This document shows positions 3,987-21,462 of a DNA stretch of 32,000 bases, piece after piece. A program made the translations under genes and the position numbers. Under the pieces are notes generated by a model. The model ran no database searches and was not told the DNA's origin. It worked only from the letters and a program-made list of their open reading frames with translations. How positions within the stretch are numbered: position 1 is the first letter of the stretch; each line of letters begins with the position of its first letter. The DNA is from Halogeometricum borinquense DSM 11551. GTDB taxonomy: Archaea > Halobacteriota > Halobacteria > Halobacteriales > Haloferacaceae. Where the stretch lies: positions 2,580,001 to 2,612,000 of the forward strand of contig NC_014729.1 of NCBI RefSeq assembly GCF_000172995.2, given 5' to 3'.

Positions 3987-4943
3987 TCACTCGACGCTCG
4001 GGAGGTCTACGACCGCGCCGTCCGCGTACACGGTCGGCTCGCGGATGATGCCGTCCAGATGCAGGGGCGCGTCGGTGTCGCCGCCGATACCCGCGTCGTC
4101 ACCGATGGCGATGTGAACCGTTCCGGCCGCCTTCTCGTCTAAGAGAACGGACCCGACTAACTCATCGACGCCGACGTTAGTTCCGATCCCCAACTCTGCG
4201 AGATTGTAAGCGTCGCGGCCGACTTCCTCCGCGCCCGCCTCGATCTGTTTGCGTACGTCGTCGTCAGAAATTTCCGTCACGTAACCGTCTTCGACCTCGA
4301 AGCGGAGTTCCTGTCCCTCCTCTAAGAGTGCGTGCGGCATCATCGTCCCGTCCACGACGTACGTCCCGTTGGCGTTCTCCGGCGAGACGAACACCTCGCC
4401 CGCGGGAAGGTTCGAGAACCCGCCCGCCTCGTGGACGATGCCGGTGTCAGCTAGCCAGTCGCGGGAACCGGGTTCGAAGGTGATGTCGGTACCCGACGGC
4501 GTCGTGACGCGGATTTCCTCAGCCTCGGTTACCTGCTTGAGAACGTCGAGACAGTGTTGGGAGATAGTGTCGTAGTCAGCGTCTAACCCGGTAAGGAACA
4601 CGTCTTCGGTGATTCCGGGAAGCGTCGCACCGCGCGCGCCTGCGTCGCAGGCGTCGCCCCGCGCGCGAGTGTGACTCAGGCTCTTCGTCGTCGGCGCGAG
4701 AAACACGTCCGCCTCGGCCATCGCCACGGCGACGGCGGCTGGCGGTTCCGCACCGTGTTGGTCGCCCGGTGGGTACCGAAGCAGCGTCGTGTCGTCCGTA
4801 ACCTCCGAAGCGACATCGTACAGGGCTTCTCCGATAGCGAGGCGTTTGTCGTCGGTGACGACGACACAGGACTCGTCAGGGGCGAGGTTCATGCACTGCA
4901 CAACTGCCGTCTCTGCGGCGGCGCGTAACTCGGCATCAGTCAT
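3987..4943 (-). CDS. aminopeptidase (M29/AmpS-like family)
   Basis: Full-length resemblance to M29-type aminopeptidases (..VVVTDD.., ..FLAPTTKSLSHT.., ..NLPAGEVF.SP.., ..LLDEKAAGTVHIAIG..). The start is taken at MTDAELR; the track start at 4982 is also possible. Confidence 0.75.
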   Translation of the reverse strand: MTDAELRAAAETAVVQCMNLAPDESCVVVTDDKRLAIGEALYDVASEVTDDTTLLRYPPGDQHGAEPPAAVAVAMAEADVFLAPTTKSLSHTRARGDACDAGARGATLPGITEDVFLTGLDADYDTISQHCLDVLKQVTEAEEIRVTTPSGTDITFEPGSRDWLADTGIVHEAGGFSNLPAGEVFVSPENANGTYVVDGTMMPHALLEEGQELRFEVEDGYVTEISDDDVRKQIEAGAEEVGRDAYNLAELGIGTNVGVDELVGSVLLDEKAAGTVHIAIGDDAGIGGDTDAPLHLDGIIREPTVYADGAVVDLPSVE

Positions 4944-6254: not shown

Positions 6255-6743
6255 TCAAACCTCGTAAAACGCCACGTCGCCCTCGTCCACGTCGAGGAGT
6301 GCGACGTGATACGTGTCGTCCGCGCCCGGTATCGGAAGCCCGCCGGGATTCACGTGGACGGTTTCACCGCTCTTTTCGTACGTTCGTTGGTGGGTGTGCC
6401 CGCGGAAGACGTAGTCGTAGTCACCCGATTCGACCAGTCCATCCACCAGCGTCTCGCTCGTTCCGTGGTACGCGGCGACGGCGGTTCCGTCGAAGTCGAA
6501 CGTGGCGCACTCGCCGTGGTACGTCCCGAACGAATCGACGACGTTCGAGAGGTTCCACTCGCCGTCGTTGTTACCGCGGACGGCGTGAAAGTCGAAGTCC
6601 GCGTCGAAGACGTTCGCGGTGAACGGCGAGACGATGTCGCCGCAGTGAATCACCGTCTCGACGCCCGCCGATTCGAACGTCTCCACCACCCCGCGCGCGA
6701 GTTCGAGATTATCGTGCGTATCTGAACAGATGCCGACTCTCAT
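6255..6743 (-). CDS. metallophosphoesterase (YfcE/MJ0936 family)
   Basis: Calcineurin-like motifs DTHDN, GDIV, GNNDGE and GHTH. The start is taken at MRVGICSD (ATG 6743). Confidence 0.85.
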   Translation of the reverse strand: MRVGICSDTHDNLELARGVVETFESAGVETVIHCGDIVSPFTANVFDADFDFHAVRGNNDGEWNLSNVVDSFGTYHGECATFDFDGTAVAAYHGTSETLVDGLVESGDYDYVFRGHTHQRTYEKSGETVHVNPGGLPIPGADDTYHVALLDVDEGDVAFYEV

Positions 6744-6801: not shown

Positions 6802-8013
6802 TTAGTTATCCTGTAGGACTTCGACACCGACCAGCGATGCACCGGTCAGCGCACGGATGTACGCGCCGCCTGCGATTGAGACGTGGCCGAAGTCGTCCTC
6901 GCTCATCCCGTACATCTCGATAGCGCGGGAGGTGTCGCCGCCACCGACGACGGAGAAGCAGTCCGTCTCCGCGATGGCGCGCAGGACGCCAACCGTCCCC
7001 TCAGAGAAGCGTTCGTCCTCGAACAGGCCGAGGGCTCCCTTCACGAAGACGGCCTCGGAGTCGCGGATAACCGGATCGTACGCTTCGACGGTGTCCGTAC
7101 CGATGTCGAGGTACGCACGGTCTTTTTCGTCGATGTCTTCGACGGCTATCTCGGCGCGTTCGTCGGCTTCGTCTTCGTAGGCGAGGTCAACCGCGAGGGT
7201 AATCTGGTCGCCGCGTTCCTCGATGAGCGATTCGATGGTCTCGTGGTTCGCTTCCCACTGGTCGTCGAACAGGTCCATCCCACCAACGTCGTAGCCGACG
7301 TCGTGACCGGCGGCCCGGAGGAACAGTTCGCCCGCGATGCCGCCCAAGAGGAAGCGGTCCACCTTCTCGCCGAGGTTGTTCATCACGTCGATCACGTCTG
7401 TCGCCTTCGTCCCGCCGACGACCATCGTCACCTGTCCGTCGAACTCTCGGGTGGCGATCGCGGAGTTGGCCTCGTACTCCGTCTGCATCACGCGTCCTGC
7501 GTAGGCAGGCAGTTCGAGGGGGAACCCGACGAGCGACGCGTGCGACCGGTGGGCGGCCGAGTACGCGTCATTCACGTAGGCGTCAAAGTACGGCGCAAGC
7601 GTCTGGACGAACGCCGTGTCTGCCTTCACTTCGGGGTCTTCTTCGGGAAGTTCGTCGTCGCACATCCGCGTATTCTCCAAGAGGAGAATGTTACCGGCGG
7701 ACAGCGACTCGATGGCGTCGATGGCGTCGTCACCGAACGTGTCGGCGACGAATCCCACGTCGTGTCCGACGTGGTCCGCGAGGATTGAAGCGTGCTGTTC
7801 GAGCGAGACGAAGTCGTCGCCGCCCGGACGGCCTTGGTGGGCCATCAGCACGACGCGGTGACCTGCTTCGGCCAGTTCGCTGACTGTCTCTGCGTGTCGT
7901 TCGAAACGTCGGTTATCCTGTACCTCGCCGTCTTCGACGGGAGAGTTCAGGTCGAGGCGAACGAGAACGCGCTGGTCGGCTTCGAGGTCGTCGAGAGTCT
8001 TGAATGTGGACAT
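6802..8013 (-). CDS. pgk: phosphoglycerate kinase
   Basis: Full-length PGK-like sequence (..RVLVRLDLNSP.., ..VLMAHQGRP.., ..GGTKATDVI.., ..VVGGGDT..). Confidence 0.92.
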   Translation of the reverse strand: MSTFKTLDDLEADQRVLVRLDLNSPVEDGEVQDNRRFERHAETVSELAEAGHRVVLMAHQGRPGGDDFVSLEQHASILADHVGHDVGFVADTFGDDAIDAIESLSAGNILLLENTRMCDDELPEEDPEVKADTAFVQTLAPYFDAYVNDAYSAAHRSHASLVGFPLELPAYAGRVMQTEYEANSAIATREFDGQVTMVVGGTKATDVIDVMNNLGEKVDRFLLGGIAGELFLRAAGHDVGYDVGGMDLFDDQWEANHETIESLIEERGDQITLAVDLAYEDEADERAEIAVEDIDEKDRAYLDIGTDTVEAYDPVIRDSEAVFVKGALGLFEDERFSEGTVGVLRAIAETDCFSVVGGGDTSRAIEMYGMSEDDFGHVSIAGGAYIRALTGASLVGVEVLQDN

Positions 8014-8070
8014 GTGTGTGGTCGAGTTGAAAGACGAAGAGATTCCACTTAGTGGTGTGCGGTCGGGCGT

Positions 8071-9123
8071 TCAGCCGTGGGTGATGAAGTGGGCCATATC
8101 GAGCATCCGGTTCGAGAAGCCATACTCGTTGTCGTACCACGTCAGGATCTTGTAGAGACCGCCGTCGTTGACCATGTTCGTAGACTGAAGATCAACCGTC
8201 GAGGAGAACGGCAGACCGACGATATCCGAGGAGACGACTTCGTCGTCAGTGTACCCGAGGACGCCCGCGAGCGGACCGGAGTCAGCAGCGTCACGGAAGG
8301 CGTCGTTTAGTTCTTCGACCGACGGTGTCTCGTCCAGTGAGACGACGAGTTCCGTGATCGAACCGTTGGGGACGGGGACGCGCATCGCCATTCCGTCGAG
8401 TTTGCCGTCCAGTTGCGGCAGAATCTCGGTCGCGGCCTGTGCGGCACCCGTCGAGGTTGGGACGATATTCTCGGCGGCGGCGCGGCCGCGGCGCTTCTTG
8501 GCCTTCGGGCCGTCGATGAGGTTCTGCGATCCGGTGTAGGCGTGGACCGTCGTCAACAGACCGGACTCGATGCCGAACTCTTCGTCGAGGACTTTCGCCA
8601 CGGGCGTGACGGAGTTCGTCGTACACGAGGCGTTCGAGACTACGTCCTCGCCGTCGTACTCGTCGTGATTGACGCCGTAGACTATCTGTTTGACCGGTTC
8701 CTCGCCCTTCGGCGGTGCGGAGATGAGAACCTTATGTGCGCCCGCATCGAGGTGTGCGGAAGCGTCCTGCTTGGTGCGGAAAATGCCCGTACATTCGAGC
8801 GCAACGTCCACGTTGAGTTCGTCCCACGGCAGTTCGGCGGGACTCTGGATGTTGAAAAGCGGGACGGACGTGTCGCCCGCGACGAGTTCGTCGCCGTCGA
8901 GAGAGACCTCATCCTGCCGGCCCATCACCGTATCGTACTTGGCGAGATAGGCCATGTCCTCGAAGTCCATCACGTCGTTGATGCCGACGAGTTCCACCTT
9001 CGGATTCTCCATCACCGCGCGGAACACGTTCCGCCCGATCCGACCGAACCCGTTCAGGCCGACGCGAACTACGTCGTCGTCACCCACCTTCTCACCAGCG
9101 GCGAGGTATGATTTTTCACTCAT
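8071..9123 (-). CDS. gap: glyceraldehyde-3-phosphate dehydrogenase, type I (bacterial-like)
   Basis: ..VGLNGFGRIGRNVFR.., catalytic ..SNASCTTNS.. and ..WYDNEYGFS.. are typical of type I GAPDH. Confidence 0.92.
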   Translation of the reverse strand: MSEKSYLAAGEKVGDDDVVRVGLNGFGRIGRNVFRAVMENPKVELVGINDVMDFEDMAYLAKYDTVMGRQDEVSLDGDELVAGDTSVPLFNIQSPAELPWDELNVDVALECTGIFRTKQDASAHLDAGAHKVLISAPPKGEEPVKQIVYGVNHDEYDGEDVVSNASCTTNSVTPVAKVLDEEFGIESGLLTTVHAYTGSQNLIDGPKAKKRRGRAAAENIVPTSTGAAQAATEILPQLDGKLDGMAMRVPVPNGSITELVVSLDETPSVEELNDAFRDAADSGPLAGVLGYTDDEVVSSDIVGLPFSSTVDLQSTNMVNDGGLYKILTWYDNEYGFSNRMLDMAHFITHG

Positions 9124-18206: not shown

Positions 18207-18279
18207 GTCGAACTCCCGGCTATCCGCTTAGGCCGATGCTCGTTCCGAGAATAAATTCGTAAGCGAAGCGTCTCGTCTT

Positions 18280-18333
18280 CCGGATTCTGAACCACACTCG
18301 CTCACTCCGTTCGCTCGCTGGTTCAGAATCCGG
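18280..18333. repeat. perfect 14-bp-stem hairpin with T-arm-like arms and the CTCACTCCGTTCGC core in its loop
   Basis: ccggattctgaacc (18280-18293) and ggttcagaatccgg (18320-18333) are exact reverse complements. The 26-nt loop contains ctcactccgttcgc at 18301-18314. The arm resembles the tRNA-Phe T-arm ccggatttgaacc with one extra base. Confidence 0.9.
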
Positions 18334-18384
18334 TCGGGTCGAACTTTCAGAACCCGCCACGCTCGGTAGTCGGGTTCAGAGAAG

Positions 18385-18470
18385 TGCCGCCTCCCGGATT
18401 TGAACTTCCGGCGAGCAAGCTCGCCGACTCGCCGCTCACTCCGTTCGCGGCGACGGGGACAGCTCGATCT
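18385..18470 (-). other. truncated duplicate of the tRNA-Phe 3' half (positions ~36-73) split by a 48-49 nt structured insert
   Basis: 18385-18405 is identical to 18518-18538, and 18455-18470 is identical to 18540-18555. The intervening 18406-18454 folds into two hairpins (ggcgag/ctcgcc and tcgccgc/gcggcga). No 5' half (acceptor 5' strand or D-arm) is present. Confidence 0.85.
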
Positions 18471-18517
18471 CCCGTGAAGGACAGAAGACTCTCGAACAGA
18501 AATTGTTCGCAGGAAAA

Positions 18518-18591
18518 TGCCGCCTCCCGGATTTGAACCGGGGACAGCTCGATCTTCAGTCGAGTGCTCTCCCAGTCTGAGCTAAGGCGGC
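18518..18591 (-). tRNA. tRNA-Phe: tRNA-Phe (anticodon GAA)
   Basis: The reverse complement is GCCGCCTTAGCTCAGACTGGGAGAGCACTCGACTGAAGATCGAGCTGTCCCCGGTTCAAATCCGGGAGGCGGCA. It folds into a full cloverleaf (7-bp acceptor, CTCGA/TCGAG anticodon stem, loop CTGAAGA, CCCGG/CCGGG T stem). No CCA is encoded. An oligo-T run follows, and an A/T-rich box (tttttgaatc in gene sense) lies about 25-30 nt upstream. Confidence 0.95.
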
Positions 18592-21163: not shown

Positions 21164-21389
21164 TGGGCTCGGGCGGAGTCGAACCTCGGTCGCTCCACTC
21201 ACTCCGTTCGCTTTGCTCCCTGATTCGACTCCTTGTCGTCCACTCAGACCACGGACGACTTGCTATCGCTCGCAGATTTCAGTGGGCTCGGGCGGAGTCG
21301 AACCACGAGGACGTTGCTTCGCTCGTCCTCTGGGTTCCATCCGACCTCTCGTCGCAGAAATCCTGCTCGCTGTCGCTCGCAGATTTCAG
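21164..21389 (-). repeat. two tandem truncated copies of the tRNA-Val 3' end (T-arm, acceptor 3' strand and trailer) with hairpin-rich spacers
   Basis: tgggctcgggcggagtcgaacc occurs at 21164-21185, 21283-21304 and within the gene at 21390-21411. A 40-nt block, tcgctcgcagatttcagtgggctcgggcggagtcgaacca, is repeated exactly at 21266-21305 and 21373-21412. Spacer hairpins are 21175-21183/21224-21232, 21235-21241/21253-21259 and 21307-21313/21324-21330. Confidence 0.9.
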
Positions 21390-21462
21390 TGGGCTCGGGC
21401 GGAGTCGAACCACCGATCTCTTCCTTGTAAGGGAAGCGTCATGACCACTAGACCACGAGCCC
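21390..21462 (-). tRNA. tRNA-Val: tRNA-Val (anticodon UAC)
   Basis: The reverse complement is GGGCTCGTGGTCTAGTGGTCATGACGCTTCCCTTACAAGGAAGAGATCGGTGGTTCGACTCCGCCCGAGCCCA. It folds into a cloverleaf with CTTCC/GGAAG anticodon stem, loop CTTACAA and GGTGG/CCGCC T stem. Confidence 0.93.

Follow-up and report, generated by a model that had tools for sequence, protein, structure and literature searches.

A partial tRNA copy that lies next to a tRNA gene is, as a matter of routine, dismissed as an integration scar. The tRNA-linked repeats of Escherichia coli have, to our knowledge, been known since the 1980s and are unexplained. We checked in the sequence that the E. coli tyrT region contains the 3'-terminal 19 nt of tRNA-Tyr six times; the three copies downstream of tyrV are 178 nt apart and overlap rttR. 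These repeats are transcribed together with the tRNA (10.1101/2024.07.17.603846). Direct repeats of tRNA 3' ends are also a product of integration (PMC5861418; bioRxiv 10.1101/2022.07.05.498093), and integrated elements of Haloferax gibbonsii terminate in tRNA remnants (PMC7921747).

Here, we focus on the tRNA-Phe locus of Halogeometricum borinquense in a window of 32 kb (the whole stretch of DNA that was analysed). An initial annotation described a partial tRNA-Phe copy 47 nt downstream of the intact gene, split in its T arm by a double-hairpin insert that carries a shared 14-nt core. This architecture is borne out by our analysis. The copy consists of two exact blocks (Table 1), which are adjacent in the 74-nt tRNA-Phe gene and parted by 48 nt (18406-18453) in the copy, and the gap between gene and copy (18471-18517) lies downstream in the gene sense. 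GCCGCCTCCCGGATTTGAAC has two exact occurrences (18386-18405 and 18519-18538), with none expected in 100 shuffles when up to three mismatches are allowed; CGGGGACAGCTCGATCT also occurs exactly twice (18454-18470 and 18539-18555), again with essentially no chance expectation. The insert comprises two hairpins, H1 and H2, and shows neither a target-site duplication nor a loss of bases at the junction. Of the interpretation proposed earlier, one part is supported: a hairpin-forming insert cleanly breaks a once-contiguous tRNA-Phe fragment. The reading as an attL/attR scar is not supported (see below). The idea that the insert is instead a duplicate of tRNA nt 41-53 was dropped because the match is weak. 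Scans against Rfam (gathering and E<=10) returned only the two tRNAs and weak chance matches.

The annotated second copy is real, but it is not the only one in the window, which also holds a third, degenerate Phe copy and two partial copies of tRNA-Val (Table 1). Same-sense Phe 3' copies are located at 18518, 18385 and ~18269, and those of Val at 21390, 21283 and 21164. The shared core, the 14-mer CTCACTCCGTTCGC, has three sites (18301, 18435 and 21198). A 15-mer version of it, for which 0.01 occurrences are expected by chance, is found in the 32-kb window only at three tRNA-trailer sites. The third Phe copy has an acceptor-like tail similar to the tRNA in a sequence comparison, and homologous modules are present in H. 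rufum and H. luteum. Its T loop is the canonical GGTTCAAATCC in H. borinquense strain L001 and GGTTCAGAATCC in the window, a one-base difference. The window is 100% identical over 20.5 kb to L002 (DSM 11551), and the two H. borinquense strains (window/L002 vs. L001) are 99.6% identical save for a replaced segment of ~0.8 kb (~15.6-16.4 kb), which spans unannotated ORFs of 191 and 126 aa. In the Val array, one 48-nt repeat takes in 24 nt of the trailer, and H. pallidum retains the loop GAGCGACAGCGA of the trailer hairpin on an entirely different stem (GAAATC/GATTTC vs. CTACAAC/GTTGTAG).

Table 1. Features of the tRNA-Phe and tRNA-Val loci in the window (positions in nt from the first letter of the window).
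Feature	Position	Strand	Basis or detail
tRNA-Phe(GAA), intact, source of copied segments	18518-18591	minus	ARAGORN; Rfam tRNA 65.5 bits
Trailer TTTTCCTGCGAAC, T run plus 5' half of GA/GNA apex motif	18505-18517	minus	sequence; comparison with relatives
Spacer with two small hairpins (18493-18509, 18467-18489)	18467-18509	minus	RNAfold; alignment A2 and pair counts
Copy block a, tRNA-Phe nt 37-53 (third anticodon base, 3' part of anticodon loop, 3' strand of anticodon stem, variable loop, 5' strand of T stem)	18454-18470	minus	17/17 identical
Hairpin H1, stem TCGCCGC/GCGGCGA, apex GAACGGAGTGA (tandem G.A pairs plus GNA triloop)	18429-18453	minus	sequence, RNAfold, RNAalifold
Hairpin H2, stem GGCGAGC/GCTCGCC	18410-18425	minus	sequence, RNAfold, RNAalifold
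Copy block b, tRNA-Phe nt 54-74 (last T-stem base, T loop, 3' strand of T stem, 3' strand of acceptor stem, discriminator)	18385-18405	minus	21/21 identical
Further trailer hairpin GAACCCG...CGGGTTC, between second and third copies	18346-18381	minus	RNAfold
Third, degenerate tRNA-Phe 3' copy as hairpin module	18269-18333	minus	15-bp perfect arms
Third copy, inverted T-arm	18319-18333		
Third copy, loop with GCGAACGGAGTGAGCG	18299-18314		
Third copy, T-arm	18280-18294		
Third copy, acceptor-like tail	18269-18279		
Array behind tRNA-Val(TAC)	21164-21462	minus	gene 21389-21462
Val trailer hairpin with GCGAAGC apex	21308-21331	minus	
Val partial 3' copies	21283-21307, 21164-21188	minus	gene's last 25 nt; spacings 107 and 119 nt
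Val module, inverted T-arm plus apex motif	21224-21232, 21197-21211	minus	

Orthologous loci were fetched via flanking proteins (for the upstream 178-aa protein, four homologues were found). Furthermore, 12 metagenome contigs were found by a scan anchored on the tRNA-derived flanks, and thus their flanks are fixed by the search pattern. The interrupted copy lies ~50-55 nt behind tRNA-Phe in H. pallidum, where it reaches 5' to nt 21 and is decaying (H1 5/7 pairs), in a Halobacteriaceae MAG (L135) with other hairpin stems, and in 6/12 metagenome contigs. In four more contigs it is located 69-202 nt downstream, and in 2/12 no intact tRNA-Phe 3' end was located upstream of the copy. H. luteum has a T-arm hairpin module first, followed by a decayed interrupted copy; H. 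rufum has the hairpin module only, and the module decays in L132 also. Judged from these loci, the arrangement is older than the split of the Halogeometricum species and related uncultured lineages.

The copy was annotated as starting at tRNA position ~36, which is correct for H. borinquense but not for the relatives, as nearly all of their copies begin at nt 25/26 (gCACTCGACTGAAGATCGAG...). Hence, the ~36 start represents a local divergence and not an att core boundary. The 5' edge of the relatives' copy is the centre of an inverted repeat, and the H. borinquense spacer is homologous to the 55-nt spacer of the relatives, an inverted imperfect partial copy of tRNA nt 25-42. In alignment A2, spacer and anticodon-arm region of the copy are 79% paired as compared to at most 44% when slid. 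A hairpin A formed by these two segments was rejected: the complementarity is real, but the covariation is not significant. The trailer element TTTTCCTGCGAAC follows the interrupted copy on its 3' side in most relatives and the real tRNA-Phe in H. borinquense.

The arrays are also dynamic. The order of the modules varies between species, and L135 and L147 lack the tRNA-Val modules, which marks the element as dispensable. Behind the tRNA-Val of L146 (~4649-4900), two 124-nt units that are nearly identical stand in tandem; each consists of trailer hairpin, T-arm module and tRNA 3' end, and the pair looks like a recent unit duplication. The varied module order, the shifted TTTTCCTGCGAAC, the L146 tandem and the lineage losses fit unequal recombination between repeated 3' ends. 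The trailer motif GCGAAC-GAA-GTGAGCG, which is unbroken in H. rufum, is split at the triloop by ~25 nt in both H. luteum and H. pallidum (tACCGAGggagcggagcgACCGAGtc; L011 ~8745-8690 and L009 ~9785-9740). The split triloop suggests that hairpin tips might be insertion hot spots.

Covariation was assessed in alignment A1, which comprises 14 distinct sequences. Five pairs are altered on both sides in H1 (98.4% of cells paired) and five in H2 (99%). Together, H1 and H2 have 10 double-changed pairs and 97.8% of cells paired, values reached in 0/500 shuffles in a test that is inflated by the mutual relatedness of the 14 sequences; with slid partners, at most 41% of cells are paired. RNAalifold independently gives H1, H2 and a closing stem, in which the variable-loop/T-stem strand pairs with the T-stem/acceptor strand, and it counts nine compensated pairs. 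The copy can form a 10-bp helix of acceptor/T type. At the H2 position two versions of the stem are found, most relatives having GARAGRC/GYCTYTC capped by GAGCGNAGCGA. The alignment shows that the predicted pairing of H1 and H2 is maintained by compensatory substitutions across related haloarchaea. Base pairs retained through two-sided changes in independent lineages are what is expected of a selected structure in RNA or ssDNA. The initial annotation had itself named a shared arrangement with compensatory changes in relatives as evidence against a scar. This is what the 14 sequences exhibit, and its own argument thus turns against the scar. Taken together, the comparisons establish that a tRNA-derived module of the repeat array contains a double hairpin that is old and structurally maintained.

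The apex GAGCG-N-AGCGA is invariant in the 14 sequences but for N, the free middle base of the triloop. As compared to the others, the H. borinquense apex GAACGGAGTGA has a G-C to A-T swap in which the pair is kept. The 14-mer CTCACTCCGTTCGC is one variant of a predicted structural motif, GC-GA-RC-GNA-GY-GA-GC, in which a C-GNA-G triloop sits on tandem G.A pairs. The d(GCGAAGC) mini-hairpin with its GNA triloop is an extra-stable DNA, and presumably the apex described here (C-GNA-G closed by G.A pairs) resembles it. The stems below such apexes contain 36 G.T vs. 14 A.C mismatches. This strand-specific bias suggests folding of the purine-apex strand, either as RNA or as ssDNA, and not a symmetric duplex property. 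A literature search with the motif sequence gave only unrelated primer matches and no description of the apex motif, and nothing relevant was found in the literature on haloarchaeal intergenic hairpin repeats.

The motif extends beyond Halogeometricum. In a genome scan for the 16-mer GCGAACGRAGTGAGCG, 32 of the 120 matches listed are in Halobacteria of many genera. By our own estimate Halobacteria make up ~1% of the collection, suggesting a strong enrichment among the matches listed. At the haloarchaeal sites among these matches, the motif usually caps a hairpin with a lower stem that differs between sites. tRNA-linked modules with the motif are found at tRNA-Val of Halobellus rarus, tRNA-Gly of Natronococcus pandeyae and tRNA-Ala of H. 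pallidum, and at tRNA-Arg of Haloferax marisrubri a motif module is accompanied by three downstream copies. At one tRNA-Ala and one tRNA-Arg, the motif is antisense to the tRNA. Judged from these sequences, arrays of such modules lie behind several tRNA genes in several haloarchaeal genera, including Halobellus, Haloferax and Natronococcus. In a fetched and therefore biased sample of haloarchaeal tRNAs, 19/36 have a direct copy of the tRNA 3' core within 400 nt downstream and 1/36 upstream. tRNAs of the same sample that are far from a motif match have no direct 3'-core copies; thus the phenomenon is frequent and not universal. A short apex class is 3.8-fold over shuffles in haloarchaeal loci and 3.1-fold in identically chosen non-haloarchaeal loci, and since this control is not clean, we make no enrichment claim for that class.

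Several further occurrences of the motif were observed. In a methanogen, Methanosarcina spelaei (L080 3858-4007 and L075), GCGAACGRAGTGAGCG is located between complementary flanks in 67-nt tandem repeats. In Halorubrum and others (L015, L017, L043, L105, L122-L124 and L126), the motif tips long composite hairpins with common flanks such as GGGACTCAAAGGGGCAGCC...GGCTGGGGCTT and GGGGAGGTGTGAGGTG, apparently a separate and larger repeat family. In a Pseudomonas group (L030, L039, L063 and L120), repeated sites with the flanks ...CTAAC and GTTAG... have GCGAACGRAGTGAGCG at their centre and look like integron attC, with seven such sites in 8 kb in L030.

We favour, with moderate confidence, the explanation that the tRNA-Phe 3' trailer carries an array of tRNA-linked repeats, of which the interrupted copy is one module, and that this module is structured and selected on the tRNA-sense strand. 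It would have originated as an old partial tandem duplicate of tRNA-Phe (nt ~25-74), the 5' edge of which is an inverted repeat of itself. The T arm of the duplicate would then have gained two hairpins, each with a GA.AG/GNA mini-hairpin as cap. Selection may act on the structure as a folded single strand of tRNA sense; most probably this strand is RNA that arises by read-through from tRNA-Phe and ends at the T run past the copy, because the first T run in most relatives comes only after the copy. Candidate roles of such a trailer are 3'-end formation or termination, protection against exonucleases, or a platform for protein binding. Termination sites in Haloferax are commonly preceded at short distance by a hairpin, and in a reporter assay with one hairpin 59% of the transcripts were terminated (PMC7237163). 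Parallel to the Phe array, trailer arrays are found behind tRNA-Val, Gly, Ala and Arg. As in the tyrT repeats of E. coli, recombination between the repeated 3' ends might cause the modules to multiply, vanish and change their order.

Some observations weigh against a trailer function. The module is decaying in H. pallidum, H. luteum and L132, the tRNA-Val modules are missing from some lineages, and at a tRNA-Ala and a tRNA-Arg the motif has antisense orientation. In H. borinquense, TTTT directly follows the real tRNA-Phe on its 3' side, and thus the copy may be poorly transcribed in this species. The tRNA-derived flanks, furthermore, could be kept identical by gene conversion instead of selection. 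More broadly, Halobacteria might hold an undescribed class of strand-specific hairpins with the GC-GA-RC-GNA-GY-GA-GC apex, which use neighbouring tRNA arms (T, anticodon, acceptor end) as stems and would act on tRNA transcripts or loci as termination or processing signals, as protein platform or as attC-like ssDNA recombination sites. We put this generalization forward only tentatively and consider it doubtful.

As the main alternative, the hairpins may represent a selfish or mutational repeat whose stems are drawn from local sequence, i.e., a REP-, MITE- or double-hairpin-like unit with the GA/GNA apex that inserted in a neutral pseudo-tRNA. Its pairing would be kept by a need of the element itself or by fold-back or template switching, and it would have no role for the host. 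The clean break in the tRNA sequence, the over-representation of the 16-mer in Halobacteria (among the matches listed) at the tips of differing stems and the loss of modules in some lineages are all consistent with such a unit. The stems are often local sequence (T arm, anticodon arm, acceptor end), which fits inverted duplication. Within the window, however, the motif is confined to the two tRNA trailers, the trailer copy is on none of the plasmids searched, including those of this species, and the insert lacks a target-site duplication. Moreover, compensatory changes that occur in place at a single orthologous site are explained better by selection than by reinsertion over and over. We therefore regard a selfish or mutational origin as unlikely, if still a serious contender.

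Integration would explain the copies differently: repeated integration at tRNA-Phe left 3' copies, and internal deletions of the elements brought these beside the gene. The locus does contain a direct repeat that matches the tRNA 3' part without a single difference (20/20 and 17/17 nt), and both the direct repeats that result from integration and the tRNA remnants at the ends of H. gibbonsii elements, cited above, are of this kind. In contig L136, a phage tail-tube gene (T4 gp19-like, 7567-8094) is found ~0.7 kb beyond the array. On the other hand, no Phage_integrase or mobile-element genes were detected among the window ORFs (Pfam) or within 6-10 kb on either side of eight related loci with gene calls (precomputed Pfam; H. 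borinquense (2 strains), H. rufum, H. pallidum, H. luteum, a MAG and JGI contigs). When the tRNA-Phe 3' segment was searched as attP, the phage collection returned only tRNAs of bacterial phages, and plasmids and an exact scan of IMG/VR nothing. The relatives have neither an empty site nor a large element at the locus and instead share the short arrangement, be it intact or decayed. Inverted T-arm copies and an apex motif common to different tRNAs are not expected from integration, nor is the start of the relatives' copy at nt 25/26 that of an anticodon-loop core. Together with the age of the arrangement and the covarying hairpins, these data argue against the attL/attR scar proposed initially, and we consider it improbable. 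For the very first duplication, an integrase origin is still conceivable.

A folded ssDNA recombination site of attC type is very improbable, and so is a non-canonical intron or one half of a split tRNA: the same 16-mer is central to the attC-like Pseudomonas sites, but no recombinase is encoded nearby; and L136, a 9-kb contig with no canonical tRNA-Phe, carries a full-length tRNA-Phe-like gene with the double-hairpin insert (6553-6684), but its anticodon is AAA and the T loops of most relatives' copies are 8-9 nt long, so that removal of the insert would not restore a normal tRNA. In addition, inspection of the folds places the junctions at the base of ordinary hairpins, which does not fit a bulge-helix-bulge layout. 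A split tRNA gene, which the initial annotation had considered, would require a 5' half; none is present in the window, and the copy is without its 5' 36 nt. T-loop lengths, the AAA anticodon in L136 and the junction geometry as judged by inspection speak against a bulge-helix-bulge intron or split tRNA.

As the tRNA-Phe copy is structurally maintained across species, the default reading of such copies as scars can be wrong. The locus joins three haloarchaeal themes, namely tRNA-linked repeats, a recurrent GA/GNA-capped hairpin motif that is found in many genera, and the reuse of tRNA arms as stems. A functional trailer would offer a new handle on termination and processing of archaeal tRNA transcripts, and a selfish one would represent a new class of small repeats that prefer tRNA loci. 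Pseudo-tRNA fragments of this kind can be miscalled and hence matter for tRNA annotation.

REP elements and mitochondrial double-hairpin elements are small intergenic hairpins like the modules described here. REP families share their stems, whereas the haloarchaeal hairpins have a common apex on differing stems, and mobility is only a candidate property. Partial tRNA duplicates made by tyrosine integrases, e.g., those of SNJ2 type in haloarchaea, likewise place a direct repeat of the tRNA 3' part beside an intact gene. In contrast to these, the array has no element or integrase, its repeats are only ~110-130 nt apart, it includes inverted arm copies and conserved hairpins, and it is stable across species. 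In Haloferax gibbonsii, tRNA remnants also lie beside a full gene, distinct from those in which integrated elements terminate (PMC7921747); the paper lists remnants only and describes no structure, conservation or motif. The closest parallel is provided by the E. coli tyrT tRNA-linked repeats (RttR/rtT RNA, Rfam RtT), which share with the haloarchaeal array several regularly spaced same-sense copies of the tRNA 3' end within the trailer of that tRNA. The haloarchaeal array differs in being archaeal, in having no sequence or Rfam RtT match, in its units of ~107-133 nt, and in modules with inverted tRNA-arm copies and GA/GNA-capped hairpins, one copy being broken in the T arm. tRNA-linked repeats as such are thus already known from E. 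coli tyrT, and the haloarchaeal array is a variant with features of its own.
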